This document shows positions 3,000 to 59,985 of a stretch of DNA of 64,000 nt, one piece after another; within the stretch, counting starts at the first letter, position 1; the number at the start of each line of letters is the position of its first letter. The notes beneath the pieces were generated by a model. That model did not search any database. It saw only the letters and a program-made list of their open reading frames with translations, and was not told the origin of the DNA. The stretch is from IMG/VR virus record IMGVR_UViG_3300046504_000138, positions 6,638 to 70,637 of that record. One strand, given 5' to 3'. The DNA comes from a virus. The position numbers and the translations under genes were made by a program.

Positions 3000-3611
3000 A
3001 TGGAAAAATACATATGGTCATTGGATATTTCGACAACTAATGTGGGGTGTTCACTTTGGAACAATAAAGGAAAGTTGATTGAATTAAAACATTTAGCATT
3101 AAAGTCAGATAAAGAAACTTCAGTGGATGATAGAGATATTCATAAAGCAGATGTCTTTAAAGAATATTGTATTGCCTACAGACAGAGAATTGAAAATGAT
3201 TTAAATGGTGAAATGCTACACATATTTGTAGAAGCACCATTACAAAATACTCCTAAGAATATTAATACTACAGCATTATTGCTTGGCTTTAATGGTATGG
3301 CAAGATATGTTCTATATGAAGTATTCGATTTAATGCCGATTAAGATCAGTGTATATGAAAGTCGTAAATTATTCTGTCCTGAATTAGTGAAGGTATCATT
3401 TAAAAAAGGCGAAAAAGTAGAAACTATGAGTTTCCCCGAAAAATATTTAAAAGAAAAAAAGTTGTATATTTGGGAAAAGGTTGCTAAATTAGAACCCCAA
3501 ATCGAATGGTTTTATACCAAAAACAATACTCTTAAAGACATGTGTTTTGATATGTCAGATAGTTATTGTGTTGGTTTTGCCGGACTAAAGACTTTGGGTA
3601 TTGTGAAATGA
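3000..3611 (+). CDS. RuvC-like Holliday junction resolvase
   Basis: SLDISTTNVG, FVEAPL and DMSDS acidic motifs of the RNase H fold. Confidence 0.75.
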   Translation: MEKYIWSLDISTTNVGCSLWNNKGKLIELKHLALKSDKETSVDDRDIHKADVFKEYCIAYRQRIENDLNGEMLHIFVEAPLQNTPKNINTTALLLGFNGMARYVLYEVFDLMPIKISVYESRKLFCPELVKVSFKKGEKVETMSFPEKYLKEKKLYIWEKVAKLEPQIEWFYTKNNTLKDMCFDMSDSYCVGFAGLKTLGIVK

Positions 3612-35549: not shown

Positions 35550-36359
35550 ATGGGAACAAAATATGCGTCAAAACAAATAGAAAAAGAAATTATTTCATTA
35601 TATGAAACAAAATCAGAGAACGAAATAGCATCAATTTATGGTAGAACACAATCTGGAATTAATTTAATTCTAAAAAGAAATGGAATTCGAAAATTAAAAA
35701 AAAGTAGATTAAACATGAGTCATCTTGCACTTAATGTTGACTATTTTAAAGAAATTAATTCAAAAGATAAAGCATATTGGCTTGGCTTTATATGCGCAGA
35801 TGGAAATATTAAAAAAACAAATAATAAAGTATCATTAACATCAAAAGATTTGGAAGTGATTGAAGGATTTAAAGGGGCAATTGGTGCAGAACATACTATT
35901 AGTAAGAGAAAATTTTTTGACAAAAGAACTAATAAAACATATATCGGATATTTAATTCAAATTGGTAATGAATTATTTGTTAATAATTTAATTGATTTAG
36001 GTGTGACATCAAATAAAACAGATATATTGAAATTTCCGAAGATTGATGAAAAATATTATTCATATTTTATTGCAGGATTATTTGACGGAGATGGGTTTGT
36101 TGGTATCAGAAATCATAATAAACTACGAATAAGTCTTATTTCAACTAAAGAAGTGTTAGATTTTATAAGTAATTTATTGACTAATATAGGAATTAATGAA
36201 TTATCGAAAGTTAAAGTTTCGAAGAATAAAATAAATGTTTGGAAAACATGTCTATATAAAGACGCAGATAAGTTTTTAAATTATATATATGGTGATGATA
36301 ATTTTAAGTATTATTTAATGAGAAAATATAACATATTTAAAAATGCAAGTAGAAATTAA
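35550..36359 (+). CDS. LAGLIDADG homing endonuclease (free-standing)
   Basis: AYWLGFICADG and FIAGLFDGDG motifs; N-terminal HTH. Confidence 0.9.
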   Translation: MGTKYASKQIEKEIISLYETKSENEIASIYGRTQSGINLILKRNGIRKLKKSRLNMSHLALNVDYFKEINSKDKAYWLGFICADGNIKKTNNKVSLTSKDLEVIEGFKGAIGAEHTISKRKFFDKRTNKTYIGYLIQIGNELFVNNLIDLGVTSNKTDILKFPKIDEKYYSYFIAGLFDGDGFVGIRNHNKLRISLISTKEVLDFISNLLTNIGINELSKVKVSKNKINVWKTCLYKDADKFLNYIYGDDNFKYYLMRKYNIFKNASRN

Positions 36360-36945
36360 TAAATTTCAAAATTGTATATTTTTGGACGTTGACGGTGTTT
36401 TGAATTGTCAATTATTTTATGATGAAAAATTCAAAGAACTCAAACATTTTGATGGCATACCATTTTATAAAACCGTGAAAAAATACTTACGCAAATTATT
36501 TCATCAAAAAGAAATCAGTGATTTGAACTATTATAAATCACAAATGTGTGCCAAACGCATAAGTTGGCTCAATATATTATGCGAAGAAACTAATAGTGCA
36601 GTAGTCCTCAGTGCTTCTATGAGAAGTGGTTGGTCTGTTCCGGACTTACAGAAAATTTTTAATTATTGTGGTGCTACCTTTATTATAATAGATAAGACGA
36701 GTCATTGTGATTGTAGAATCAGAGGTGTGGAAATCCAAAATTGGATGAAGGATAATTGTATGAAATGGTTTGGTGTTCAATATTATGATTTTCATCGTTA
36801 TGCAATCATTGATGACGATTCAGATATGTTACTTTGTCAAAAGGGGAATTTTTTTCAAACTGATAATTATAGTGGTTTAACTCCCACTACTTGTTATAAA
36901 ATAAAAAGATTTTTTACACAAAAAACATTTCATTACAATGAATAG
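36343..36945 (+). CDS. HAD phosphatase ('Swiss-army-knife' RNA-repair-like)
   Basis: FLDVDGVLN, VVLSASMR, RG.EI..W, IIDDDSDM and GLT motifs. Confidence 0.85.
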   Translation: MQVEINKFQNCIFLDVDGVLNCQLFYDEKFKELKHFDGIPFYKTVKKYLRKLFHQKEISDLNYYKSQMCAKRISWLNILCEETNSAVVLSASMRSGWSVPDLQKIFNYCGATFIIIDKTSHCDCRIRGVEIQNWMKDNCMKWFGVQYYDFHRYAIIDDDSDMLLCQKGNFFQTDNYSGLTPTTCYKIKRFFTQKTFHYNE

Positions 36946-40490: not shown

Positions 40491-41285
40491 ATGAAATTCT
40501 TAATTCAAAAGATCAACGGTGAGATCAGGCATGATTTTGCATTCACACTCTTAGAATCCATAAGATTTAAGAATTGGTTATCACGTAATGATAAAAAAGA
40601 TAAAATCAAAGTAAAATTCATCGAATATAGTGACGAAATACCTGAACCTTCGGATATTTATCCAATGCCATTTAAACCAATGCACAAGGATTACGTGCCA
40701 ATTGGCAGTGTTGAATTTGTCAGTGATTTTCTAATGCATTTTCATAATCTCAAACCTGAACCAATAAATGTTCCGGAAGAACTTTTCGGGTTTGCAAAAA
40801 GATATATATTTAATGATAGTCATTTAGGCTTGGAGAATCAAGCAGGAAAATTCTTTGTAAAGAGTAATGACAAAATCAAAGGCTTTGCTGAACTTGTAGA
40901 ATGTTTTGATAATGGCAATCAGGGAACAAAATACTCAATTCCAATACCTGTGGGAGCATATCAATTTTCAGAATATATCAGAGGCATTGAAAGTGAATGG
41001 AGAGTCTTCGTATATGAAGATAAAATGGTTGGATTACAGAATTATACTGGTGATTTTACTGTATTTCCAAATATTAATAGAATCAAACAAATAATCAATG
41101 CATTCGAAGTAAGTGGTAGTGCCCCGATAGCATATACACTTGATGTAGGTGTGACAGATCACGATACAATTATTATCGAAGTGCATGATTTTTTCAGTTG
41201 CGGACTCTATGGATTTGCAAATCACGGAGTATTACCGCATATGTTTTATAGATGGTTTGAAGAATATTTATTCATAAATTTCTAA
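40491..41285 (+). CDS. ATP-grasp (R2K/DUF4343-like) protein
   Basis: PIGSVEFV, FFVK....K, SEWRVFV, YTLDVG, IIEVHD and GLYG motifs. Confidence 0.75.
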   Translation: MKFLIQKINGEIRHDFAFTLLESIRFKNWLSRNDKKDKIKVKFIEYSDEIPEPSDIYPMPFKPMHKDYVPIGSVEFVSDFLMHFHNLKPEPINVPEELFGFAKRYIFNDSHLGLENQAGKFFVKSNDKIKGFAELVECFDNGNQGTKYSIPIPVGAYQFSEYIRGIESEWRVFVYEDKMVGLQNYTGDFTVFPNINRIKQIINAFEVSGSAPIAYTLDVGVTDHDTIIIEVHDFFSCGLYGFANHGVLPHMFYRWFEEYLFINF

Positions 41286-45104: not shown

Positions 45105-45674
45105 ATGAAAACAGGAACATTAATTGGTGCAGGTGTATTTGCACTTATCGTAGTAGGATTTCTCTTTTGGGCAATTGGTTTATCAAACACCGAAAAGAAA
45201 CTCTACCTGACAGGTAAAGCAGCACAAAATCAGACTCAGGTAATCTTTGACAATACTTGGAAAACAATTCGTGATCAGGCTAATGTCACGGATAACTACA
45301 AGGATGATTTCAAAGAAATTTACATCGGTATGATGGAAGGTCGTTACAAAAACGATGCAGTTGCAGGTCAGCAATCTCTGATGAAATGGGTACAGGAAAG
45401 TAATCCGACTTTGGATGCAAGTATCTATAAGACTTTAATGAATACTATTGAAGGTTCACGTAAAGAATTTACATTTCAACAGGAAAAACTTATTGACATT
45501 GATCGTCAGCATAAATCCCTGAGAGCAACTTTCCCGAACACTTTGATCATCGGTGGTCGTCCGGACTTGGAAATTAAATTAGTAACAAGTGCTAAGACCG
45601 AAGAAGCCTTTAAGACTGGTCAGGATAACGACAATCTAATAAAAAGAGAGCCGAAACCTGCAGTAACAAAATAA
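45105..45674 (+). CDS. LemA-like membrane-anchored protein
   Basis: N-terminal TM and helical body with GRY, W.QE.NP, Y..L...IE..R..F and FP motifs. Confidence 0.6.
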   Translation: MKTGTLIGAGVFALIVVGFLFWAIGLSNTEKKLYLTGKAAQNQTQVIFDNTWKTIRDQANVTDNYKDDFKEIYIGMMEGRYKNDAVAGQQSLMKWVQESNPTLDASIYKTLMNTIEGSRKEFTFQQEKLIDIDRQHKSLRATFPNTLIIGGRPDLEIKLVTSAKTEEAFKTGQDNDNLIKREPKPAVTK

Positions 45675-45678
45675 AAAA

Positions 45679-45688
45679 GTTCTTTGAA
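45679..45688 (+). promoter_or_regulatory. boxA-like antitermination site
   Basis: GTTCTTTGAA directly upstream of the structured RNAs. Confidence 0.45.
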
Positions 45689-45694
45689 GATAAA

Positions 45695-45914
45695 GTCTTT
45701 CTGCTGAAAGCAAACAGTGCAGTATGTTCATAGCCTTCAAAAATGGTGGCGATCCGCAAGGATTGGGTTAAGTCCACCTTCTATTCAAAATGCATAGTCG
45801 TGCCAAGAGGACGTTGTTTGTAATAAGATGGCAAGAAAAATACTGGGACGATGTTGATAGACTGAAACGACTGCAACTACGTGCCATTCTGCTTGGAAAA
45901 ACAGACAGAAAGAC
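45695..45914 (+). ncRNA. Unassigned ~220-nt structured RNA
   Basis: Closing stem GTCTTTCTG/CAGAAAGAC; nested TGCAGT/ACTGCA, GGTGG/CCACC, CGATCC-GCAA-GGATTG, TAGTC/GACTG; possible pseudoknot ATGGCA/TGCCAT. Confidence 0.7.
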
Positions 45915-45919
45915 CCCAC

Positions 45920-46080
45920 GATTGGATGACGGAATTGGTAGACGTATACTTGTTGGTTTTAAGGTTAAAATATGTCTTTAAAGCATAGGGTAGTTCCACG
46001 CATTGGGGATTAGTGCACACGAGTCCTTCTGCAATTCAAAAAACATACCCACCATGCAGGTTCGAATCCTGCTCCAATCA
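45920..46080 (+). tRNA. tRNA-like RNA (Leu-type D-arm) with ~110-nt insert in place of anticodon/variable arms
   Basis: Acceptor GATTGGA/TCCAATC+A; D-arm ACGGAATTGGTAGACGT; T-arm GCAGG-TTCGAAT-CCTGC; no encoded CCA. Confidence 0.75.
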
Positions 46081-46176
46081 CGAGTACTAACACGATGGCT
46101 GAGTGTTCAACTGACGGATAACATGCCAAAAAGGAAGCACCGTTACAAAGGAAAGTTGGCGACTAAACCTAACTTT

Positions 46177-46205
46177 GCAAGTTTGATAAATGAAACTTGT
46201 TTTTA
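46177..46205 (+). terminator. Terminator-like hairpin closing the RNA cassette
   Basis: CAAGTTT/AAACTTG stem plus T-run. Confidence 0.5.
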
Positions 46206-46220
46206 TTTAAATTATTAATT

Positions 46221-47084
46221 ATGGGATATCTTCACATTGAAAATCTTTACAAAAATCAAAGCATTCTTTTATTTAAGGAATGCTATGCTATGGAAAAAAT
46301 TCATGGCACTTCTGCACACATTAGTTGGAATTTCACTAATAAAATTGTGAATTTCAGCAGTGGTGGTGAGAGCCACGAAAACTTCATTAAATTATTTGAT
46401 CAGGAATTTCTCAAAGCCAAATTCGTTGAGGTATTTCCTGATATTGATGTTGTTATCTTCGGTGAAGCATATGCCGGAAAACAGCAAGGTCAATCTCATG
46501 TTTATGGCAAACAATCAAAATTCATCGGTTTTGATGTTAAAGTTGGTGACTATTGGCTTAATGTACCGAATGCAGAAGATGTATGTAAACAATTCAATAT
46601 TGAATTTGTGCATTATAGAAAGATTGAAGTCAATCTTGAAAATCTTACTGCCGAAAGAGATATGGATTCCGTTCAGGCTGTTCGTAATGGCATGGGATAT
46701 GGTCATAAACGTGAAGGCGTAGTTCTTCGTCCTTTAGTTGAAATGCGCATAAACAATGGTGACAGGGTTATTTGCAAATACAAGCCTGACGAACAAATGG
46801 AAACCAAGACCAAGAGAGAAGTCAGTGAAGAACAACTTAAGGTTTTAAGTGATGCAAAAGCAATTGCCGAAGAATGGGTAACTAATCTCAGGCTTGAACA
46901 TGTGTTACAGAAATTCCTTGCTGATGTCAGTATGGAATCAATGGGTGAAGTAATTAAAGCAATGGTTGAAGATGTTTACAGGGAAGGCAAAGGTGAAATA
47001 GTTGAAAGCAAAGAAGTAAGCAAAGCCATTGGCGGTAAAGCCGTACAACTTTTCAAACAGAAACTTAATAGCACGTTAAAATAA
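46221..47084 (+). CDS. RNA ligase, Rnl2 family
   Basis: Motifs I EKIHGT, III FGE, IIIa FDV, IV EGVVLRP and V KYK. Confidence 0.85.
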   Translation: MGYLHIENLYKNQSILLFKECYAMEKIHGTSAHISWNFTNKIVNFSSGGESHENFIKLFDQEFLKAKFVEVFPDIDVVIFGEAYAGKQQGQSHVYGKQSKFIGFDVKVGDYWLNVPNAEDVCKQFNIEFVHYRKIEVNLENLTAERDMDSVQAVRNGMGYGHKREGVVLRPLVEMRINNGDRVICKYKPDEQMETKTKREVSEEQLKVLSDAKAIAEEWVTNLRLEHVLQKFLADVSMESMGEVIKAMVEDVYREGKGEIVESKEVSKAIGGKAVQLFKQKLNSTLK

Positions 47085-47672: not shown

Positions 47673-48437
47673 ATGGAAAACAATGACTATTATGTGTATG
47701 TCTATTTTAATCAACTAAAATCGGGACAATGGATTTATAAAGAGCATGTTTTTAATTATCAACCCTTTTACGTTGGTAAGGGTAGAAGAAAAAGAGACAT
47801 CATGCATTTATGTCCATTCATGTTAGCATATAAAAACGTTAAAAATTCAACAATAAAATCAATAATCAGTGAAATTGGAGAAATGCCAATTCATTATAGA
47901 ATATACGAAAATTTGACCAATGAAGAAGCAATTAGCATTGAGATTGATTTTATAAAAACGTTTGGTAGAAAAGATAATGGCACAGGAATTTTATCGAATG
48001 GTACTGATGGTGGTGATGGTGCGAATAATTTTTCTGAGGATATCTTAAAAAAACTTGGCAACAATCGTAGGAAGGTTTATCAGTATAGTCTTGATGGAAT
48101 TTTTATTAAAGAATGGGAAAGTGTTAAATCAACCGAATTAGAATTTAAAAGTAGTGGCGATATTTCTACGGCAATTAAACGAAATGGAACTTATTGTGGA
48201 TATGTTTGGTCATATGAAAAACATGAAAGCATTAAACCAAGGACAAAATATCAACAACCAATAAAATATGAAAATATTAAACAGGTTAATAAAAGAACTA
48301 ACGAAATTATACATACATTTGCAAATGCATTAGAAGCAGAAACCGAATTAAAACTAAATGCTGGTGCAAGAAACAAAATTTGTGATTGCTTGAATAATAA
48401 ATTAAAGACTGCATACGGATATAAATGGAAATTTTAA
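47673..48437 (+). CDS. GIY-YIG-type homing endonuclease with NUMOD1-like repeats
   Basis: YYVYVY...PFYVGKG...R, E...I..FGR...G.L.N.TDGG, VYQYSLDG.FIKEW.S and TAYGYKW motifs. Confidence 0.85.
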   Translation: MENNDYYVYVYFNQLKSGQWIYKEHVFNYQPFYVGKGRRKRDIMHLCPFMLAYKNVKNSTIKSIISEIGEMPIHYRIYENLTNEEAISIEIDFIKTFGRKDNGTGILSNGTDGGDGANNFSEDILKKLGNNRRKVYQYSLDGIFIKEWESVKSTELEFKSSGDISTAIKRNGTYCGYVWSYEKHESIKPRTKYQQPIKYENIKQVNKRTNEIIHTFANALEAETELKLNAGARNKICDCLNNKLKTAYGYKWKF

Positions 48438-48457: not shown

Positions 48458-49255
48458 ATGGTTGATGAACTTGGAAATCGCATGAAGAAATTTTATGAGG
48501 ACAGAACAAAAAGTTGGCTTCCACGCAGAACGTATACTATTATCCGTATTGACGGTAAAGCATTCCACACATATACAAGAGGTTTAAAACAACCTTTTGA
48601 TGAAGGTCTTGTCGAAGACATGGACGCAACTGCTTGTTACCTTTGCAAGAACATACAAGGCAGTAAATTTGCATTTGTTCAGAGTGATGAAATCAGTATT
48701 CTTTTAACCGATTTCGATAAAATAGATACAGATGCCTGGTTTGATGGCAACATACAAAAAATGGTAAGTGTTGCTGCAAGTCTGGCTACTGCAAAATTTA
48801 ATCAGTTAAGACTTATTCGAACAAATAATGAAGTTGTTGAATTTACTGGTGCTGATATTGGATTATATAAAATAGCAACTTTTGATGCACGTGCATTTAC
48901 AATACCATGTGATTATGAAGTTGAAAATTATTTTATTTGGAGGCAAAAAGATGCTACAAAAAACAGTATTTCAAGTGTTGCTCTGAGGTTTTATAGTCAT
49001 AAAGAATTGGAAGGTAAAAACGGTGATCAAAAGCAAGAAATGATATTTCAAAAAGGCACTAATTGGAATGATTATGCTCCAATGTTTAAAAGAGGCAGAT
49101 TTATTTTCAAAAAAGAAGTTGAAATGGAAACACCATTTGTTTCAAAGGATAAAAAGCAAACCACTTATATGCGAAATGTTTGGACAAGTGGCGAATGCCC
49201 AATATTTACTCAAGACAGAGAGTTTTTATTAAAATTTATTCCAAAAAATTCTTAA
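48458..49255 (+). CDS. Thg1-like 3'-5' nucleotidyltransferase (tRNA-His guanylyltransferase family)
   Basis: RIDGKAFH, QSDEIS, FDAR, WRQ.DA.KNS and KRG motifs. Confidence 0.92.
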   Translation: MVDELGNRMKKFYEDRTKSWLPRRTYTIIRIDGKAFHTYTRGLKQPFDEGLVEDMDATACYLCKNIQGSKFAFVQSDEISILLTDFDKIDTDAWFDGNIQKMVSVAASLATAKFNQLRLIRTNNEVVEFTGADIGLYKIATFDARAFTIPCDYEVENYFIWRQKDATKNSISSVALRFYSHKELEGKNGDQKQEMIFQKGTNWNDYAPMFKRGRFIFKKEVEMETPFVSKDKKQTTYMRNVWTSGECPIFTQDREFLLKFIPKNS

Positions 49256-50932: not shown

Positions 50933-51118
50933 ATGATAAAAGAGACAAATTACAAGGTTGTAAGGGTTACAAAGACCGAATTCGAGTTGGATAATGGTGA
51001 CATATATCCACATAACTTCGAACTCGAAGAAGACATCACCGTTGAAGAATTTCAAAAATTACTGGATTCTTCAAAAGAACTAATCGTAGATTTACTGAGG
51101 AAAATTGATGAACAATAA
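50933..51118 (+). CDS. Small hypothetical protein inside the IS left end
   Basis: ORF after TATTTATA (50903), overlapping the tnpA start. Confidence 0.6.
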   Translation: MIKETNYKVVRVTKTEFELDNGDIYPHNFELEEDITVEEFQKLLDSSKELIVDLLRKIDEQ

Positions 51119-51842
51119 TTTACTAAATATAAAAGAAGCATCGGAGTACCTCAATACCTCTAAGGAAACATTAAGGAATTGGGATAAGAGTGGTAAGTTA
51201 CCGTCAATAAAAACTGTTGGTGGTCATAGGAGATACCAAAAGGAAAAACTTGATGAATTCATTGGAATTATAAAGTCAGATGAAACATCGGATGTTGTTG
51301 CCACCTATGCCAGAGTAAGTTCACATGAACAGAAAACCAAAGGTGATTTGGATAGACAATCTCAGAGAATTTCTGAATACTGTGCAAAGAAGAAATTGAA
51401 AGTTGAATATATAATAAAAGATGTTGGGTCAGGATTATCCGATACAAGGTCGGGATTTGTTAAGTTAGGGAATCTGGTTATTGATAAGAAAATCACACAG
51501 GTCATCATCGAGAACAAAGACAGATTAACAAGGTTTCAATATAACTTTGTGGAGAAGATGTTCGGGAGTTACGGAGTTAAAGTAATATGTATCGACAAAC
51601 CAGACGATGAAGGGGATAAAGAGTTTATTAATGACCTTATGATGATAATTGCGTCATTCTCTGGAAGATTATATGGAGCACGAAGTGCTAAAAACAGAAG
51701 AGAAAAGAAATTAAAAGAAAGTAGTATAAATTTTCCATTACCCGATAACGCAAAGCCAGAAGATTATGAATGTCCAATACCTAAGTTTACTGATGACGAT
51801 TTAAGGACTTATGATATGAAAATAATAATGAAAAATAAATAA
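51105..51842 (+). CDS. tnpA: IS607-type serine recombinase (MerR-like HTH + resolvase)
   Basis: TLRNWD..G......T.GGHRRY, YARVSS..QK..DL.RQ, DVGSG, DRLTRF and FSGRLYG.RS motifs. Confidence 0.92.
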   Translation: MMNNNLLNIKEASEYLNTSKETLRNWDKSGKLPSIKTVGGHRRYQKEKLDEFIGIIKSDETSDVVATYARVSSHEQKTKGDLDRQSQRISEYCAKKKLKVEYIIKDVGSGLSDTRSGFVKLGNLVIDKKITQVIIENKDRLTRFQYNFVEKMFGSYGVKVICIDKPDDEGDKEFINDLMMIIASFSGRLYGARSAKNRREKKLKESSINFPLPDNAKPEDYECPIPKFTDDDLRTYDMKIIMKNK

Positions 51843-51844
51843 TT

Positions 51845-52207
51845 ATGGAAAGAACAATTAAATTTAGAGCATGGGACGAAGGTAATAAAATCATGCACAA
51901 CAACTTTCAATTCATTCGTTCAGGTGAAGAAGGTAATGATTGGATAGTATTTACATCCGATAAACAAACTCTTAAAGACAAACAACATCCGTTGGAAAAT
52001 CCTTATTTTCAGCAACAATTGAAAATAATGGAATGGACAGGAATAGAAAATATTTTTGAAGGAGATATTGTCTCGTTAGGTGAAACTGACGGAGAAGGTG
52101 TTGTGAAATATAATGAAGATAGATTTTATGTTGATTACGGAACTATACATACAAGAGTGAGTAAAAATCATAAAGTATTGGGAAACATTTACGAAAAAAC
52201 TGAATAA
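51845..52207 (+). CDS. YopX-like protein (IS cargo)
   Basis: IKFRAWD...M.WTG...IFEGDIV...VLGNIYE. Confidence 0.8.
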   Translation: MERTIKFRAWDEGNKIMHNNFQFIRSGEEGNDWIVFTSDKQTLKDKQHPLENPYFQQQLKIMEWTGIENIFEGDIVSLGETDGEGVVKYNEDRFYVDYGTIHTRVSKNHKVLGNIYEKTE

Positions 52208-52208
52208 T

Positions 52209-52412
52209 ATGAGTGGAGAAGTAGAATTTGGAAAATGTGATATTTGTAAAGAGGACAAACCTCTTGAAAGGACTTACTATCATTATGATATTAAATGTGA
52301 ATGTCATTCACCTCGTCATTTTGAATTGGTTATACATTGTAAAGATTGCGTTCCAAAAGAACCATCGGAAACTAAAATTATACTAAAAACATCAAATCTT
52401 TCAAAAATATAA
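52209..52412 (+). CDS. Small Zn-binding protein (IS cargo)
   Basis: CDIC...CECHS..H....HC.DC. Confidence 0.7.
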   Translation: MSGEVEFGKCDICKEDKPLERTYYHYDIKCECHSPRHFELVIHCKDCVPKEPSETKIILKTSNLSKI

Positions 52413-52414
52413 TC

Positions 52415-52570
52415 ATGAGAACAATAGAAATGAGTTGCTTAAGTTCTAAATATAATGAACTTAGAAAAGGATTAAAAATAACAAATGAATCGCATAGTAA
52501 TCGTGTCATATTGTGGTTTCATTTTATCTGGTTCGCAATAAGATTTTGTACATATAAAACACCTAATTAA
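52415..52570 (+). CDS. Small hypothetical protein (51 aa, IS cargo, not in ORF track)
   Basis: Fills the gap exactly between 52412 and tnpB. Confidence 0.5.
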   Translation: MRTIEMSCLSSKYNELRKGLKITNESHSNRVILWFHFIWFAIRFCTYKTPN

Positions 52571-52572
52571 TA

Positions 52573-53709
52573 ATGAAACTAATCAGGTCAACCAAATGTA
52601 GTTTGAAATTCGCAACAGCGAAGAAGCAAAATGATTTATTAATCATCTTGAGTGAATACTCAAAGGTGGTTAATATCTTCATTGACTATTTCTGGCTGAA
52701 TTCTGAGAAAGCAACAAAAGGAGAACTCCTTAAACCAGTTGTTGACATACCCGAAACTTGGTTATCGGCACGACTACGAAAGGTAGCAGCAAGAGAAGCC
52801 ATCGACATGATTAATGCTTCAAAGATTCGTTGGAAAGAAAAAGCAGCGAAGCCAGTTCATAAAGGTAATAGGATGTATGTTAGTTGTACTATTGCTGACT
52901 TAGTATCAACCAAAAACAATGGTTATAAAACCGAAGACAGCAGACTTTTTGATGCTTGGTTACACATTGCCTCAGTAGGTAATAAAATGATAATGGATTT
53001 ACCGATTAAATATCATAAACACTTCAACAAATATAACAACATCGGTAAGAGATTGAACTCGTATATTATCACGAAGAATTATGTTCAGTTTAGTTTTGAA
53101 ATAATAACACAACCTAAGAAAGAAGACACGAAGTGTATTGGTATAGATACTGGTATAAACGCATTGGCGAGTCTTAACAACGGAAATCAGTATGGTAAAG
53201 ACATTAAAGGTTGCATCGAGAGAGTGAAAAGATGTAAGCAGAAGTCCAAAGGCTATTATGTTGCTAAGAGAGCATTAAAACAACGCATAGATGAAACAGC
53301 AAAGGAAATATTAGTGAAAGAGAATCCTGATTTGATAGTTGTAGAACGATTAAAGAATATGGGATATAAAACAAAAGCCAAATGCTTGTTGGCTAAAAGT
53401 ATCAGGCGTTCTATCGGAACTTGGAATTGGAAGTACTGGTTGAAAAGGTTAGAAGCACAATGCGAGATTAACCGTGTTAGTTTTCGTAGTGTAGCACCTT
53501 ATTACACCAGCACAACCTGTCCAGTATGTGGTCATTCCGATAGGGGAAATCGATTAGGAGAAATGTTCTTGTGTCTCAGTTGTGGTCACGGGGATAATGC
53601 AGATATAAATGCGGGTAAGAACATTTTGAATCGATTTCTCACGGGACTATACGGTGCTCGTTACAAACAGGAAAATCAAGAGAATTTGGTTGTTACCAAT
53701 TTTTTGTAG
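52573..53709 (+). CDS. tnpB: TnpB RNA-guided nuclease
   Basis: RuvC triad GIDTG / VVERL / ADINA intact; CPVC...CLSC zinc ribbon. Confidence 0.92.
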   Translation: MKLIRSTKCSLKFATAKKQNDLLIILSEYSKVVNIFIDYFWLNSEKATKGELLKPVVDIPETWLSARLRKVAAREAIDMINASKIRWKEKAAKPVHKGNRMYVSCTIADLVSTKNNGYKTEDSRLFDAWLHIASVGNKMIMDLPIKYHKHFNKYNNIGKRLNSYIITKNYVQFSFEIITQPKKEDTKCIGIDTGINALASLNNGNQYGKDIKGCIERVKRCKQKSKGYYVAKRALKQRIDETAKEILVKENPDLIVVERLKNMGYKTKAKCLLAKSIRRSIGTWNWKYWLKRLEAQCEINRVSFRSVAPYYTSTTCPVCGHSDRGNRLGEMFLCLSCGHGDNADINAGKNILNRFLTGLYGARYKQENQENLVVTNFL

Positions 53710-53715
53710 ATTTTT

Positions 53716-53907
53716 ATGAACGGTACATTTGGTAAGAGTGGTAAAGACCCTCTAAAATATGTGATATTAAAGAATATGTCTGATGATCATATTAGAGCAA
53801 TTCTTGATACTCAAAAACAAATTACTAATTTCTACCGCATGGAATTTGAAAGAGAATTAATGCGTAGGGCAAGAAAACCTGAACTTTCACTTAAAGAAAC
53901 AACTTGA
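53716..53907 (+). CDS. 3' half of the interrupted gene, given an in-frame ATG by the IS right end
   Basis: ATG AAC GG|T ACA TTT GGT; GTFGKSGKDPLKY...SDDHIRAILDTQ. Confidence 0.65.
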   Translation: MNGTFGKSGKDPLKYVILKNMSDDHIRAILDTQKQITNFYRMEFERELMRRARKPELSLKETT

Positions 53908-54050
53908 AAACGATTGATGAATTAGAATGGGTTCTTGGTGTTCTTGCATTAGGAATATGTTTAGGATTTTTTATGTATTTATATAATCATGAAAAAGAAA
54001 GAAAAAAAGAAATACGTAAAACCGGAAGTGACAAGGATAGTATTGGATAA
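53904..54050 (+). CDS. Possible small single-TM protein (TTG start, not in ORF track)
   Basis: TTGA overlap with the upstream stop; one hydrophobic helix. Confidence 0.4.
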   Translation: MKTIDELEWVLGVLALGICLGFFMYLYNHEKERKKEIRKTGSDKDSIG

Positions 54051-54165
54051 CACATTCAGTTTGTGCATGATGTCGCATCCTGAACATCCACCGCACCCGC
54101 CACATCCACCGCACCCGCCACATAAAGGTGCTTTTGATAGTCCATTTGATAAACCTTTTAATTGA
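53989..54165 (+). CDS. RiPP-precursor-like peptide with YxKP leader and His-Pro-Pro repeats (58 aa, not in ORF track)
   Basis: MKKKEKKKYVKPEVTRIVLDNTFSLCMMSHPEHPPHPPHPPHPPHKGAFDSPFDKPFN. Confidence 0.7.
   Translation: MKKKEKKKYVKPEVTRIVLDNTFSLCMMSHPEHPPHPPHPPHPPHKGAFDSPFDKPFN
54085..54120 (+). repeat. 18-bp tandem repeat x2
   Basis: CATCCACCGCACCCGCCA twice, encoding HPPHPP. Confidence 0.9.
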
Positions 54166-54171
54166 AATATT

Positions 54172-54540
54172 ATGAATTACAATGAATTTTTAAGAAAAAT
54201 TATTGATGAAGGTATTGAAGCAGCAAAAGCCGATTATACTGAGGAATCTGATAAACAACGTTTAGAAGGTTCAATTGCAGGATTTGAAGCCTGTCGTGAT
54301 AAAACTCCTGAAGAACTTGTTGAAGTGTGGAAAAAAGCATCATCAGATGTTAATAATGCCTTTGGTGATAACGAAAAAAAATATTGGTGGTTTCGTTGTT
54401 TTCAACTTGAAGTCGAATGGGTTTGTAATGTAGTAAGTGCAATGTTATTAAATGAAGGTCGTAAACCTTTATTGGCGTGGTTGCCTACTGCTAATGGTGG
54501 AATGAAAGCATCATCAATACTTGGAGTTAATAAAGAATAA
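54172..54540 (+). CDS. Hypothetical protein
   Basis: ORF in operon. Confidence 0.7.
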   Translation: MNYNEFLRKIIDEGIEAAKADYTEESDKQRLEGSIAGFEACRDKTPEELVEVWKKASSDVNNAFGDNEKKYWWFRCFQLEVEWVCNVVSAMLLNEGRKPLLAWLPTANGGMKASSILGVNKE

Positions 54541-55962: not shown

Positions 55963-56452
55963 AATGGAAGTGGCAATAGCCAAGTATTATGGAGTACGAC
56001 AAAACATTATTGTACCGAATATTAGTTGGGGGTTGCCTGGAATGCATGAATGTGATATGTTCATTATATCAAGAGCAGGATTAGTAACAGAAATTGAACT
56101 AAAACGAAGTAAATCAGACCTTTTAGCAGATTTTAAGAAAGGGCATGATCATAAAGACAGAGCAAACCGGATATGTGAATTTTATTATGGAATGCCCGAA
56201 GATTTATATGAAAAAGTTAAAAACCTGATACCTGAAGGCGCAGGAATACTAACTTGTCAAAGACCCGATTGGGATGAAAGTGGAATGAGAATATATGTAA
56301 ATGAAAAACGTAAACCACTGAGAAGAAAAAATGCAAGGAAATTAACTGAAAAAGAACAATTTAAAATAGCATGGCTTGGCACAATGAGAATTTGGACACT
56401 GAAAGAAAAAATAATTAAACTGCAAAAAAATGGAATTGCCAAAAAGGTTTAA
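55913..56452 (+). CDS. PD-(D/E)xK nuclease-like (MmcB-like) protein
   Basis: HECD...EIELKRSKSDL.AD.KK; FYY..P; IP..AG motifs. Confidence 0.7.
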   Translation: MLTKKKSSPKKPITTIEMEVAIAKYYGVRQNIIVPNISWGLPGMHECDMFIISRAGLVTEIELKRSKSDLLADFKKGHDHKDRANRICEFYYGMPEDLYEKVKNLIPEGAGILTCQRPDWDESGMRIYVNEKRKPLRRKNARKLTEKEQFKIAWLGTMRIWTLKEKIIKLQKNGIAKKV

Positions 56453-57047
56453 TAACCGACCTAACGACCATATATCATATGGTTTTAATTCACAAGCAAC
56501 GGGACTAAAAATAAAACAAGATTATTTTATTGGAAGAGCAACAGCATTAGTTGGTGTGGTACTTGCATTTACGCCCAATGGTTTATCAGTTCTTATAAGT
56601 AAAAGATCAGATAAAATGAGAGACGAAGCCAATAGGGTTGGCATACCTTGTGGTTATCTTGATTGGGACGAAACTCGTTATGAAGGTATGATGCGTGAAA
56701 TATATGAAGAAACATCTTTATACATGCCTGATTATGAAAAATATGTGATCTTTGATAATAATAAAAATGCGTTTCATGTCAAAGATAATCCCAAAACAGA
56801 TAAACGTCAGAATGTTTCTCATATATTTCTTACTGTATATGATTTTGCTAAAACAGAAGAAGCAATAAAAAACTTTCCTGTAGGTATTGAAGCATTTAGT
56901 TGTGGAGAAACTGCATGGGTAAAATGGATGAAAATTGTTGATTTTTATGCAACATATATGAATTATGAATGGGCATTTAATCATGATGAAACAATAAAAT
57001 CAGCACTACAATTTTTTAACAGTAATTTTAATAGAGAAGAACTATGA
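56430..57047 (+). CDS. Nudix hydrolase
   Basis: PCGYLDWDE.......REIYEET Nudix box. Confidence 0.8.
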   Translation: MELPKRFNNRPNDHISYGFNSQATGLKIKQDYFIGRATALVGVVLAFTPNGLSVLISKRSDKMRDEANRVGIPCGYLDWDETRYEGMMREIYEETSLYMPDYEKYVIFDNNKNAFHVKDNPKTDKRQNVSHIFLTVYDFAKTEEAIKNFPVGIEAFSCGETAWVKWMKIVDFYATYMNYEWAFNHDETIKSALQFFNSNFNREEL

Positions 57048-57331: not shown

Positions 57332-58755
57332 TGACAATGCTTGATAATCAATTACAACTTACTTCTGGCAAACTGATAACTTTTAATGACGAGCAGTTTG
57401 AAGGTATTAAAAAGATAAACCATTGGTTAAAAAATGGTAATACTTTTTTCACCTTGGCAGGTTATGCAGGTACTGGGAAGTCAACAATAATTAAAAAAAT
57501 ATTGGATACTTATCGTTGGGGAGTAGTTGTTTCAGCACCTACGCATAAAGCCAAAAAAGTTGTAATGAACACCACCGGAGAAGATGGTCAAACCCTGCAT
57601 GCACTTTTGGGATTAAGACCCGATCTGGATTTGGATAACTTTAATCCTAATGATCCTAAATTTAATCCAATTGCATTAGCAAAAATTAACGATTATAACT
57701 TTGTTATTATTGACGAAGCATCAATGATTAACCAAGAATTATATGATCTGATATTAGATAAAACAAAAAATAATAGAACTAAGGTTCTTTTCATGGGTGA
57801 TCCTGCACAGATTCCACCTGTTGGCGAAAAAGAATCAGTGGTGTTCAAACAACAAAACGATATAAATGAATTTCATCAATTAACTAAAATCGAAAGACAA
57901 ACAGATACTAATCCGTTGGCTTTTGTATATGATGCACTTAGAAATAACCTTAATACTCTTGATGGTGGTTTTCTGAGACGATCATGTATGAACGAACACG
58001 GTGAAGGTGTTATATTTACTATTAATAAAAAAGAATTCCGAGACGCAGTTATTGATAGATTTAAATCACCTGAGTTCAAAAAAGATACAGACTTCGTTAA
58101 ACTGATTGCTTGGAAAAATGATACTGTCATGGAATCCAATAAGATCGTCAGAACTGCTTTACTTGGTGATAAAACCGATATTGTTGAAATTGGTGATGTT
58201 CTTATGGCATATAGAAGTGTTAGTGATTCAAAACAAAGATATAATATAATTGAAAACAGTGCGGATTATCGTGTAATGGAAAAGTCCGGTTTGGAAATGA
58301 ATCAATATGATATCAAAGGTTATCAGGTCAAGTTAAGAGAAGACCTTCCGCATAGGAATTATAAATTTCAAGACGTATTTATTGTGGATTCTAATGATCA
58401 TGAAAATCTGCATTTATATGCTGATATGCACGACTTTTTCCGGGATATGGGCAAGTCAAATAAAAAAATGTGGACGAAATATTATGAATTTAGGCGCAAT
58501 AATCTCATAATGAAAACAATTGATAAACATAAAAATGGTACGGAGAGAGGTAGTAGTGATGTAATTGTCAAAGATTTGGATTATGGTTATGCTATAACAG
58601 GTCATAAATCCCAAGGCAGTACATATTCGCATGTATTTGTTTTAGAGAACGATATGAACGCAAATTGGATGTTGAAAGAACGCAATCAAATAAAATATGT
58701 TGCATTAACTCGTCCAAGTCTTAGTGCAACGGTATTAACTACTAAATTGGATTGA
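57331..58755 (+). CDS. Dda/RecD-like SF1B DNA helicase
   Basis: GYAGTGKS, APTHKA, IDEASM, GDPAQIPPV, YAIT.HKSQGST and YVA.TR motifs. Confidence 0.92.
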   Translation: MTMLDNQLQLTSGKLITFNDEQFEGIKKINHWLKNGNTFFTLAGYAGTGKSTIIKKILDTYRWGVVVSAPTHKAKKVVMNTTGEDGQTLHALLGLRPDLDLDNFNPNDPKFNPIALAKINDYNFVIIDEASMINQELYDLILDKTKNNRTKVLFMGDPAQIPPVGEKESVVFKQQNDINEFHQLTKIERQTDTNPLAFVYDALRNNLNTLDGGFLRRSCMNEHGEGVIFTINKKEFRDAVIDRFKSPEFKKDTDFVKLIAWKNDTVMESNKIVRTALLGDKTDIVEIGDVLMAYRSVSDSKQRYNIIENSADYRVMEKSGLEMNQYDIKGYQVKLREDLPHRNYKFQDVFIVDSNDHENLHLYADMHDFFRDMGKSNKKMWTKYYEFRRNNLIMKTIDKHKNGTERGSSDVIVKDLDYGYAITGHKSQGSTYSHVFVLENDMNANWMLKERNQIKYVALTRPSLSATVLTTKLD

Positions 58756-58756
58756 C

Positions 58757-59020
58757 ATGAAGCAAGAAATTCTTAGAATAACGTGGAAATACATCAGATG
58801 GGCAGGACAAGGGAGAACACCAACATCTTATTGCACTTATATTGCAGAGAATGACAACCATAAACATCGATTAAAAACAAAAGAAGGCACAAAATTATTT
58901 GAATTATTAAAGGAAACAAGAATATTCAAAAACAGAGATCAATCTGAACATGAATTACTTGTTGATGGCGTTTATGACGGCAAAAAATTACTTTATGTTA
59001 CTAATTTCAGAAAAATTTAA
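58757..59020 (+). CDS. Hypothetical protein
   Basis: ORF in operon. Confidence 0.6.
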   Translation: MKQEILRITWKYIRWAGQGRTPTSYCTYIAENDNHKHRLKTKEGTKLFELLKETRIFKNRDQSEHELLVDGVYDGKKLLYVTNFRKI

Positions 59021-59280
59021 TGAAAAAATTTACTCATGGAATAATGGCAGTTGATCCTCTGAATGAAAATGATGAAATGGTGGCAATCGTTCATTTCATT
59101 GGTTTATGGCAAGAACCAACAGAAGAAGAAATTTTACAGTATGCAAAAGAAATAAAGACAAACCCCAAATTCGGGCATACAGATATTGCCAATAGACTTG
59201 TGATATTACAAGCACCACCAGAAATTGTTGAGATATATTATAATATGGCAAATGAACATGAAATCAGTAAATTAAATTAA
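59020..59280 (+). CDS. Hypothetical protein
   Basis: ORF in operon. Confidence 0.6.
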   Translation: MKKFTHGIMAVDPLNENDEMVAIVHFIGLWQEPTEEEILQYAKEIKTNPKFGHTDIANRLVILQAPPEIVEIYYNMANEHEISKLN

Positions 59281-59281
59281 T

Positions 59282-59500
59282 ATGAAAAACTTTATTAATG
59301 CAATTAATTGGAAAAAATTCTTAAGGGTTGAACTTTGGACTATTGGAATATTGTTGTTCTTTTACTTCACGTCACCGAATAAATTTCCACAGAATTTCTA
59401 TGCAGTACCAACAATCATTATATTATTTGACATTATGCTATTAGTGAAAGCACATGTGACTTATTTAGAACGAAAAAACGGAATACGATGGAAAGAGTAA
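59282..59500 (+). CDS. Small two-TM protein
   Basis: Hydrophobic ORF. Confidence 0.55.
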   Translation: MKNFINAINWKKFLRVELWTIGILLFFYFTSPNKFPQNFYAVPTIIILFDIMLLVKAHVTYLERKNGIRWKE

Positions 59501-59985
59501 CGGATAAATATGTATTTTTTTGGAATGGAGAATTCTCCAATTGGTATCCCTGCAGGCATAAGAATATCAAATATAAGGGGTTGACTTTTTTCAATAGTGA
59601 GCAGGCGTTCATGTGGGAGAAAGCAGTGTTCTTTGGTGATATGGAAACCGCAAAAAAGATAGTGGAAAATCCTGATCCGGCAAGATGTAAAAGATTAGGT
59701 CGTTTGGTCAAAGGATTTGATGTAGAGAAATGGTCCGAAGTTAATTACGACATAATGATTGCGGTAAATTATGCTAAATTTACTCAGAATGGCATTTTGA
59801 AAAATACTCTTTTAGAAACAGAAGATAAAATACTTGTCGAAGCCAGTCCATATGATACTATATGGGGAATTGGTTTGCATTGGGAAGATGATGATTGTCT
59901 TGATATGGCAAAATGGAAAGGTCAAAACCTTTTAGGTAAAGCATTAATGTGTGTAAGAAATAAGATTAAATTAGAAAGCAAATGA
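59488..59985 (+). CDS. NADAR family protein
   Basis: FSNWY, SEQ.FM..KA..F.D, K.LGR.V, KF.QN, LVEASPYD.IWGIG and G.NLLG.ALM motifs. Confidence 0.92.
   Translation: MERVTDKYVFFWNGEFSNWYPCRHKNIKYKGLTFFNSEQAFMWEKAVFFGDMETAKKIVENPDPARCKRLGRLVKGFDVEKWSEVNYDIMIAVNYAKFTQNGILKNTLLETEDKILVEASPYDTIWGIGLHWEDDDCLDMAKWKGQNLLGKALMCVRNKIKLESK

Follow-up and report, generated by a model that had tools for sequence, protein, structure and literature searches.

What is encoded in the 546 nt of phage DNA that separate the stop codon of one gene (45674) from the ATG of an RNA ligase gene (46221)? The interval lies in a 64,000-nt stretch (hereafter the window, to whose positions coordinates refer unless a relative is named) of IMG/VR record IMGVR_UViG_3300046504_000138, a viral record of 70.6 kb in total. 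Because the CheckV completeness of this 70.6-kb fragment is 22%, a giant phage is indicated. A first-pass annotation, made from the sequence alone, had seen here a cassette of stable RNAs: a boxA-like leader, a 220-nt RNA closed by a 9-bp stem, a 5-nt spacer, a tRNA-shaped RNA, further hairpins and a terminator-like stem, all of which we found at the positions it gave. On comparison with relatives, we consider it probable, though well short of certain, that an uncultivated giant phage has at 45679-46204 a polycistronic operon of stable RNAs, the transcript of which is cut at tRNA-like modules. We refer to the 220-nt RNA as RNA1 and to the element that follows the tRNA-like one as RNA3.

RNA1, RNA3 and the order of the cassette

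Relatives of the cassette were collected in two ways. A search with the ligase protein returned 39 viral loci, 15 of which share pieces of the 548-nt cassette region, and a pattern taken from the 5' end of RNA1 returned 13 viral and 65 metagenome stretches, about 25 of the latter being chance matches to the pattern without the remainder of RNA1. The alignment of RNA1 (A2) comprises 35 distinct sequences after removal of duplicates, the window copy included. For the counts of architecture we used the 33 distinct loci retrieved by the pattern, to which L003 and L006 were joined afterwards to give the 35. The alignment of RNA3 (A4) holds 23 sequences.

Evidence for RNA1 comes from the behavior of its four conserved helices, in which 97.1% of the cells of the alignment are paired, as against 40-50% when the partners are slid relative to one another. 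Seven pairs are changed on both sides, compared with 2.7 in shuffles, a number that 0 of 500 shuffles reached; in L003, for example, the long-range helix P2 reads UAAACUA/UAGUUUA. The loops of hairpin P3 and of the last hairpin are complementary to each other (UUCCAA/UUGGAA or CCAAG/CUUGG, the latter in the window), with at least 5 contiguous base pairs in 31 of the 35 sequences and in 14% of shuffles of the second loop, and in L060 the two loops have changed in compensation, to UGCAA/UUGCA. The conserved helices are separated by variable hairpin domains, whose make-up depends on the sub-family. By these alignments RNA1 is a structured RNA with a predicted long-range helix and a predicted loop-loop contact.

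The same holds for RNA3. For its hairpin, its long-range helix and an invariant AGG/CCU, 98.6% of cells are paired (26-38% when slid), and the covariation score is 0.308 against 0.112, reached by 0 of 500 shuffles. One pair of the long-range helix H2 occurs as UA in 8 sequences, CG in 7, AU in 5 and GC in 2, and 5 of the 7 pairs of the terminator stem are changed on both sides. A covariance model of A4 also detects a second sequence variant of RNA3, in 7 loci with E <= 1e-8. RNA3, too, is a structured RNA as predicted from its alignment. A weak second RNA3-like match (21.5 bits, E = 0.006) lies at 367-513 of L004, about 2.3 kb upstream of the cassette there, and the motif GGAAAG..AAACCT stands at 323-339 of the same locus. 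The first-pass annotation had looked to covariation in homologues for its check, and RNA1, RNA3, the terminator and the arms of the tRNA-like elements do all keep their helices through compensatory changes.

The order of the parts is fixed as well. Among the 33 loci, a tRNA-like top half as called by our detector stands 3' of RNA1 in 30 and within 12 nt of it in 29, and the RNA3 3' motif GGAAAG..AAACCT follows in 29, two of the four exceptions being contig ends. At the other end, the leader word GTTCTTT[GA][AG] precedes RNA1 in all 33 of the 33 loci that have at least 60 nt of upstream sequence. What lies upstream of the word differs: a TAnnTTTG box, which we take to be the Bacteroidota -7 promoter element, in 9 loci, a tRNA-like element in 6, and in the remaining 18 some other sequence, for the most part the upstream gene's end. 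Because the word is constant whatever lies upstream, it behaves as an element acting in the transcript should; in the 70.6-kb record it occurs once per strand.

We assume, as the first-pass annotation did, that the leader word resembles the boxA of rRNA operons, and the presence of such a word ahead of the cassette is borne out by its conservation. The likeness, to rRNA-operon boxA and to lambda nut sites, is one of resemblance and position, and consists in a short U-rich GUUCUUUGAA at the 5' end of a long untranslated structured unit. A search of the literature for this word as a boxA found nothing useful.

The interval is untranslated and differs in composition from its surroundings, both as originally described. 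GC content is 0.399 in the cassette, 0.377 in the upstream gene, 0.361 in the ligase and 0.325 in the window as a whole. No ORF is conserved in 27 homologous cassettes, where the longest ATG-initiated ORF, with both strands counted, ranges from 22 to 111 aa. The label 'LemA-like' for the upstream gene found no support: that gene has no Pfam match and matches PHROG 1383, 'virion structural protein'.

We compared the window with 4227 Rfam families at curated (gathering) and permissive thresholds. At gathering thresholds nothing in the 64-kb window matched within the cassette, and at the permissive threshold (E <= 10, 45500-46400) the sole relevant match was to tRNA, at 18.1 bits and so below the 29 required. 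GOLLD and ROOL, which we take to be RF01998 and RF03087, had no match at the gathering threshold in the 64-kb window and 20 related loci, at E <= 10 in 45500-46400, or at E <= 5 in eight related loci. Rfam and ARAGORN, two of the checks named by the first-pass annotation, thus gave a divided outcome: RNA1 and RNA3 match no family, while the tRNA-like element of the window stays below threshold and is not called by ARAGORN. RNase P RNA, tmRNA, Y RNA, group I intron, GOLLD and ROOL were each considered and rejected for want of an Rfam match, ARAGORN making no tmRNA call. Two other candidates were dropped: a hammerhead-like word, CUGAUGAG, in L102, which the other sequences do not have, and a pairing of the leader word or RNA1 with RNA3 (for example UUCUUUG/CAAAGGA), which was sought by eye and is not conserved between sub-families.

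Searching the 548-nt region against 50,697 phage records with blastn gave zero matches. The closest cultured or deposited relative of the ligase, at 56% identity, belongs to an unannotated 485-kb 'uncultured phage', in which 5 kb on each side of the ligase contain no tRNA and no Rfam match. A scan of bacterial and archaeal genomes returned 14 pattern matches, and full RNA1 and RNA3 were found only in the 362,763-bp contig of L006 (in L125, from the same scan, the match is limited to 38 nt at the RNA1 5' end). That contig, also listed as L130, is viral in IMG/VR yet is filed under a 'Candidatus Paceibacterota' metagenome-assembled genome, which may be a binning artefact or a hint at the host.

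Table 1. Features of the cassette and of the two RNA-related genes that follow it (positions in the window)
Feature	Position	Strand	Sequence or basis
boxA-like leader word GTTCTTTGAA	45679..45688	+	word kept in relatives
RNA1, 220-nt structured RNA (predicted)	45695..45914	+	covariation, 35-sequence alignment; no Rfam match
RNA1 closing stem P1	45695-703/45906-914	+	perfect 9 bp, GTCTTTCTG/CAGAAAGAC
RNA1 long-range helix P2	45711-717/45814-820	+	CAAACAG with UUGUUUG
RNA1 hairpin P3	45797-800/45809-812, loop 45801-808	+	all four pairs covary
RNA1 last hairpin	45888-891/45902-905, loop 45892-901	+	alignment
Spacer CCCAC between RNA1 and tRNA-like element	45915..45919	+	sequence
Type-A tRNA-like RNA, 161 nt	45920..46080	+	covarying arms in 19 distinct type-A copies
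Type-A acceptor stem	45920-26/46073-79	+	GATTGGA/TCCAATC, 7 bp
Type-A D arm	45929-45	+	ACG-GAATTGGTAGA-CGT, canonical
Type-A insert	45946-46055	+	110 nt, structured, replaces anticodon arm
Type-A T arm	46056-72	+	GCAGG-TTCGAAT-CCTGC, canonical
Type-A discriminator A	46080	+	sequence
RNA3, 124 nt	46081..46204	+	covariation, 23-sequence alignment; no Rfam match
RNA3 hairpin H1	46089-46107	+	AACAC/GUGUU
RNA3 long-range helix H2	46112-116/46141-145	+	covariation
RNA3 invariant AGGAAAG	46149-155	+	conservation
RNA3 invariant AAACCUAAC	46165-173	+	conservation
Terminator-like hairpin and U-run	46178-46204	+	compensatory changes in stem
RNA ligase gene	46221..47084	+	PF09414, PHROG 548
Thg1-like protein gene	48458..49255	+	PF04446, PF14413

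The tRNA-like elements

The element between RNA1 and RNA3 has the top half of a tRNA: its acceptor stem is 7 bp long, its T stem has 5 bp and a loop of the TTCRANY type, and the loop of its D arm contains GG. Its insert takes the position that in a tRNA belongs to an anticodon arm of 17 nt and a short variable loop. No anticodon arm with a 5-bp stem and a 7-nt loop lies at the canonical distance in the window copy, which also scores below the tRNA threshold as noted above, and ARAGORN finds 0 tRNAs in the window and 0 in all 15 of the cassette-bearing ligase loci. At least three types of tRNA-like element recur in the relatives (types A, B and C), the window copy belonging to type A.

Type A has the acceptor GAUUGGA..UCCAAUC and discriminator A. 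Over 19 distinct copies, 133 of 133 acceptor cells and 95 of 95 T-stem cells are paired. Compensatory changes affect pairs 2 and 7 of the acceptor and pairs 1, 2, 4 and 5 of the T stem; the 3-bp D stem covaries as well (GCG/CGC, UCG/CGA, ACG/CGU, GUG/CAC). Total length ranges from 80 to 222 nt and the inserts are very unlike in sequence; relatives align over their full length to the Rfam tRNA model, with 31-72 nt standing where the anticodon arm would be. Within a sub-family the inserts keep their stems by compensation, as in GGAGAGUCGUCC of L001 compared with GAAGAGUCGUUC of L006. Among the 11 rows with an annotated tRNA, the type-A D arm matches a phage tRNA-Leu best in 8, a weak resemblance (E >= 0.3).

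Type B has the acceptor GCGYRGG..CGC and discriminator U. In 16 copies the acceptor, D and T arms covary, and 8 of 17 predicted pairs are doubly changed. Its 'anticodon' arms, judged by eye, are stems of variable length with GNRA-type loops (GGGA, GGAA, GGGAA, CGAAAG and similar). A long extra arm presents a loop that reads GGUGCACC in 16 of 19 copies, AGUGCACU, in which both ends are changed, in one, GGUGCACU in one (these three being self-complementary over 8 nt) and GGUGCACA in one. Type C, with acceptor GCGAGAA..UUCUCGC and discriminator U, has a matching loop that reads CGUGCACG in 3 of 6 copies, CAUGCAUG in one and the G.U intermediate CGUGCAUG in one, and is absent from the last. Because self-complementarity is kept through two-sided changes and a G.U intermediate, the loops of types B and C point to RNA-RNA pairing between two copies, a contact that is predicted from sequence.

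In a first scan of 20 loci, 8 tRNA-like elements passed the Rfam tRNA threshold, at 33-47 bits, and no conserved anticodon loop was found among these 8. At 45971-45987 the window copy has a hairpin that would pass for a perfect anticodon arm, with UUA, and no relative shares it. We call the elements mimics and not tRNAs. As far as the alignments can tell, they are non-decoding mimics built on tRNA top halves, with the anticodon arm apparently exchanged for variable structured cargo or a dimerising loop. The tRNA mimic proposed from the window sequence alone is thus upheld by covarying arms and by the 8 relatives that exceed the threshold.

Some copies are interrupted. In L006 a 277-aa reverse-strand ORF with a zf-FCS motif (2053-2886, found also in L031) lies within what was a type-B tRNA-like gene, of which only the 3' half, with the T loop and the acceptor strand, is left before RNA3. 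L005 has a similar flank at about 3380-3480.

An operon model and its rivals

How would such a cassette be expressed? Between RNA1 and the tRNA-like element, 27 loci have a spacer of 3-11 nt, mostly U-rich. In 24 of them it ends in U; the exceptions are one A and two C, one of the latter in the window. A U at -1 is preferred by bacterial RNase P, and a spacer with this ending fits cleavage by the enzyme. The modules also occur apart. In L001, L005, L009 and L011 RNA3 accompanies tRNA-like elements without RNA1; in L045 RNA1 stands alone, with the 3' half of the cassette terminator immediately after it; and the types of tRNA-like element are reshuffled across the sub-families of RNA1. This modularity favours separate RNAs with tRNA-like processing signals over one obligatory fold, and RNA1 and RNA3 appear from their distribution to be separate, independently occurring structured RNAs.

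In the operon that we favour, transcription would start at a promoter just upstream or, in the window, read through from the upstream gene. The GUUCUUUGAA of the leader would act in the RNA as the boxA of rRNA operons does and keep the polymerase going over about 520 nt of RNA that is highly folded and not translated. Cleavage signals would come from the embedded tRNA-like module: host RNase P would cut on its 5' side, leaving RNA1 with a short U-rich tail, and a tRNA 3'-end enzyme would cut past the discriminator to release RNA3, whose 3' end would be the hairpin and U-run. Part of the transcription would probably run on into the RNA-ligase gene in the window. The function is our best guess and the least supported step: the RNAs may serve the phage in a conflict over host tRNAs, as stable tRNA-shaped decoys or scaffolds, or they may bind to, or be acted on by, the repair enzymes encoded nearby, namely the ligase of Rnl2 type and the Thg1-like 3'-5' polymerase.

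A weak hint of transcription comes from assembled contigs of public sequencing runs. Two metatranscriptome runs from two studies each contain one 151-nt contig that matches the interior of RNA1. The first spans 45711-45850 and shows 9 differences as well as a single 1-nt insertion; the second spans 45713-45790 with 1 difference and then continues with the P3 and P2 of a relative. The shares of the RNA runs are small (0.09 and 0.07), and the parts of the cassette left uncovered in these two runs are uninformative.

The ligase that follows the cassette matches PF09414 (E = 1.1e-13, residues 20-188) and PHROG 548, 'RNA ligase'; its KxxG motif is EKIHG, and its match to T4 RNA ligase 2 is weak (E = 0.008, query residues 159-259 to chain residues 199-301). 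In the window only 16 nt separate the U-run of the cassette from the ATG of the ligase, which leaves no room for a promoter, so that some transcription of the ligase probably crosses the cassette. Among the 34 other loci, 23 have the ligase 0.46-2.3 kb downstream of the RNA1 start, as do 14 of the 22 that were found independently of the ligase. The linkage that had been proposed between cassette and ligase stands as synteny in these loci, and does not extend to more distant phages with the same ligase family, from which the RNAs are missing. In L045 the ligase behind the same RNA1 and the terminator remnant is also a PF09414 protein, only 21% identical to that of the window.

Eight of the more distant ligase loci carry ordinary tRNAs, which in L025, L026, L032 and L038 stand directly upstream of the ligase (Sup-tta or tca with Ile, or Arg with Ile). 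These tRNAs indicate that the neighborhood of the ligase is a tRNA island in the wider group. Specifically, tRNA-His, or a suppressor (tta/tca) with tRNA-Ile, was located 0.03-1.6 kb upstream of the ligase at 2796-2866 of L019, 2429-2499 of L021, 3628-3971 of L025 and L026, and 3628-3971 of L038.

A number of observations count against the operon. Folding energy of the window sequence alone does not differ significantly from chance (z of -1.79 for RNA1, -1.26 for the tRNA-like element and -0.15 for the whole region); it is conservation and covariation in relatives, not folding energy, that lift the cassette above chance. In P1, zero pairs are changed on both sides in the 35 sequences, and the invariance of P1 and P2 is partly an artefact, because the search pattern fixed their 5' strands. 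The loop-loop contact of RNA1 reflects mostly conservation of sequence (5.31 for a sequence's own loops and 4.97 for crossed ones), with one clear compensatory case. The invariant block of RNA3, AGGAAAG..AAACCUAA(C/G)UUUG, shows no covariation, and the match to TAnnTTTG within it at 46170-46177 means that it could be a DNA-level promoter of the next gene and not part of an RNA. As a repeated phage promoter the block was rejected (AAACCTAASTTTG occurs once in the window, and 6 times with up to 2 mismatches against 6.7 expected), and TAnnTTTG is not enriched in the window (114 observed, 108 expected). The contigs from RNA libraries may be derived from DNA, and they come from relatives of this phage.

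The association with the ligase has weaknesses of its own. Twelve of the 34 loci were retrieved through the ligase itself. Of the 11 loci without a homologous ligase, downstream sequence is shorter than 1 kb in four and exceeds 4 kb in L041 and L065. In many loci 1-3 ORFs intervene between cassette and ligase. Distant phages that bear the ligase have ordinary tRNAs or nothing at the position of the cassette, and in their loci (L013-L034, L039 and L132) nhmmer finds neither RNA1 nor RNA3, nor does the covariance model find RNA3. The synteny is equally compatible with a functional link and with a gene order inherited in one clade.

Could the cassette instead be one RNA? It might form a single ornate RNA of about 520 nt, similar to GOLLD and left uncut, with RNA1 as its 5' domain, a linker that carries the tRNA-like elements and RNA3 as its 3' domain, and it might assemble through kissing loops into dimers or larger RNA-only particles. 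The conserved 8-nt self-complementary loops of types B and C, the GNRA-type loops seen by eye in type B, which suit tertiary docking, and the long-range helix and loop-loop contact of RNA1 all speak for such a molecule. Palindromes in type A add no weight, including GUGCAC at 46013-46018, since by our estimate a 6-nt palindrome occurs about once per 100 nt by chance. We nevertheless regard a single RNA, the main rival, as unlikely: no match to GOLLD, ROOL or any other large RNA appears in Rfam (E <= 10 in the window, E <= 5 in eight relatives), RNA1 and RNA3 occur without each other, no covarying pairing between the two was found, and complete tRNA top halves next to a U at -1 resemble cutting signals. 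We consider it quite improbable that the cassette is mainly a cis-acting leader that tunes transcription of the ligase and Thg1-like genes, its RNAs having no role of their own. The window terminator is indeed weak (7 bp, two of them G-C), ends 16 nt before the ligase ATG and is missed by a generic terminator scan, and an element of the boxA type would promote read-through. Against this, the cassette is followed in L036, L037, L049, L053, L105 and L106 by further ORFs or by a second strong terminator, the modules are shuffled from locus to locus, and a multi-domain RNA of 520 nt with several types of tRNA-like element far exceeds what an attenuator needs.

Two further explanations start from the tRNA island. 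If the island were decaying, the tRNA-like elements would be pseudogenes with junk inserts, and RNA1 and RNA3 functionless remnants. Ordinary tRNA genes just upstream of the ligase in distant relatives, the variable size of type A (80-222 nt) and the ORF inserted in one tRNA-like gene of L005 and L006 are all as decay would have it, but compensatory changes maintain helices in every module, even inside the inserts (L001 versus L006), and the order is conserved over at least 30 distinct sequences, so that we hold decay to be very improbable. The other explanation makes the window element a decoding tRNA with extra arms or an intron, a candidate ochre suppressor. Its hairpin at 45971-45987 (UAUGU-CUUUAAA-GCAUA) has a 5-bp stem, a 7-nt loop, U33 and the anticodon UUA and is used by the Rfam tRNA model, and a tRNA-Sup(tta) stands beside the ligase in the distant L025 and L026. 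This explanation seems to us scarcely credible: the hairpin is missing from every other type-A copy, is separated from the D and T arms by about 25 and about 65 nt, respectively, and has its bases placed in a different 9-bp hairpin by the minimum-free-energy fold; the standard code gives long ORFs in the window, the longest of 1193 aa; and ARAGORN finds nothing even with introns allowed.

The operon reading can be carried further, into a proposal that we think unlikely and offer as speculation. The tRNA-like elements would be natural tRNA-scaffolded RNAs, with top halves like tRNA-Leu (type A) or tRNA-Gly (types B and C) and exchangeable cargo, processed and stabilised by the host and pairing through their 8-nt loops. 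Together with RNA1 and RNA3 they would form an RNA-only or RNA-enzyme particle that works with the co-transcribed ligase and the Thg1-like protein, for instance a decoy or repair platform that counters host nucleases directed at the acceptor ends of tRNAs. Since the anticodon is not read by LeuRS, type A might even be leucylated.

Neighboring genes and known systems

The Thg1-like gene downstream of the ligase matches PF04446 (E = 7e-28), PF14413 (E = 1e-5) and the structure 4kgk, 'Thg1-like uncharacterized protein' (E = 2.6e-58), which covers both the catalytic and the C-terminal domain of Thg1; by these similarities its predicted product is a bacterial-type Thg1-like protein. Between ligase and Thg1-like gene, the window has a GIY-YIG/NUMOD1 homing-endonuclease gene (47673-48437), which is apparently missing from L061 and L055, where Thg1 starts about 1.0-1.4 kb past the ligase start. 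A LAGLIDADG homing-endonuclease gene lies at 35550-36359. The domains HAD_SAK_2 ('Swiss Army Knife RNA repair'), R2K ATP-grasp, NUDIX and NADAR occur at 36343-36945, 40491-41285, 56430-57047 and 59488-59985, and are linked to RNA repair or to NAD/ADP-ribose conflicts. Pfam names no TROVE domain in the 28 window ORFs scanned.

Mobile elements are also present. A serine recombinase (Resolvase and MerR-type HTH, 51105-51842), a YopX gene (51845-52207) and a TnpB-like gene (Cas12f1-like TNB, 52573-53709) together look like an IS607-type element (51105-53709), and the gap of about 460 nt after tnpB (53709-54172) could be the location of its guide RNA. In the arrangement at 1258-3697 of L045, with RNA1, the terminator remnant and the ligase, an IS605-type TnpB gene is the neighbor. 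The L045 phage has an NAD-dependent DNA ligase and the window phage an ATP-dependent one. One other stretch of the window, 733 nt at 58755-59488, has no ORF of at least 100 aa and no Rfam match at curated thresholds.

With which known systems should the cassette be compared? The closest known kind is the structured RNAs of phage tRNA islands, GOLLD and ROOL. According to PMC12286853, both are phage-encoded, lie at or near tRNA islands and are rich in helices, with kissing loops or pseudoknots; in some cases the 5' and 3' domains of GOLLD enclose tRNAs, and the function of both RNAs is given as unknown. The cassette resembles them in being phage-encoded, in its setting at a tRNA island, in its embedded tRNA-like elements and in its multiple helices with a long-range helix and a loop-loop contact. 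It differs in that no covariance-model similarity can be detected, in that its domains are smaller (220 and about 125 nt) and occur independently, and in that it embeds non-decoding tRNA mimics where GOLLD embeds tRNAs. Oligomerisation of the cassette RNAs is only suggested, by the self-complementary loops.

For excision by the tRNA machinery, the nearest functional analogy may be the stable RNAs of the T4 tRNA cluster, species 1 and 2 (RNA C and D), which are co-transcribed with tRNAs and released by host tRNA-processing enzymes and whose function is unknown; T4 also encodes RNA ligases (Rnl1/Pnkp/Rnl2). There is no sequence relation between the two, the tRNA partners in the cassette have no anticodons, and adjacency to the ligase is conserved for the cassette and is not known to be a feature of the T4 cluster. 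YrlA and other Y RNAs with Ro (Rsr) and RtcB, as well as tmRNA, likewise use tRNA-like D and T arms as a handle and not as a decoder. The YrlA-Ro-RtcB system may be the closest analogy for a tRNA mimic encoded beside RNA repair genes, with the difference that the tRNA-like element of the cassette ends in a normal acceptor stem and is not permuted as YrlA is.

The idea of a tRNA-shaped module as a processing signal or a scaffold has precedents. In the TMERs of MHV68 and in MALAT1-mascRNA, such a module recruits RNase P and RNase Z, which excise and stabilise a neighboring or inserted RNA, and in engineered tRNA scaffolds the cargo is built in instead of the anticodon arm. These systems come from eukaryotes or viruses or were made by design; the cassette, by contrast, belongs to a natural set from bacteriophages, with several types of scaffold and with cargo that varies. 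Our literature search found neither phage tRNA-scaffold RNAs of this kind nor a combination of Thg1-like protein, RNA ligase and phage tRNA-like RNAs. Iyer et al. 2021 (PMC7824862) treat Rnl2, Thg1 and tRNA provisioning as counter-defence in jumbo phages, and note that some such phages pair a Ro/TROVE protein with a tRNA-like RNA. Fremin et al. 2023 (PMC10690425) report 8,495 candidate structured RNAs from IMG/VR, some of which may overlap elements of the cassette.

RNAs of the GOLLD and ROOL kind beside tRNA islands are a long-standing puzzle, in that their structures are now known and their functions are not. To this setting the cassette adds two compact covarying RNA families that match nothing in Rfam, and tRNA mimics in which the anticodon arm appears to be swapped for variable cargo or a dimerising loop. 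The RNAs, at about 125-220 nt, are small and tractable for structure work, and their fixed place by RNA-repair genes invites tests. More generally, a class of tRNA-derived genes in giant phages is missed by standard tRNA finders.

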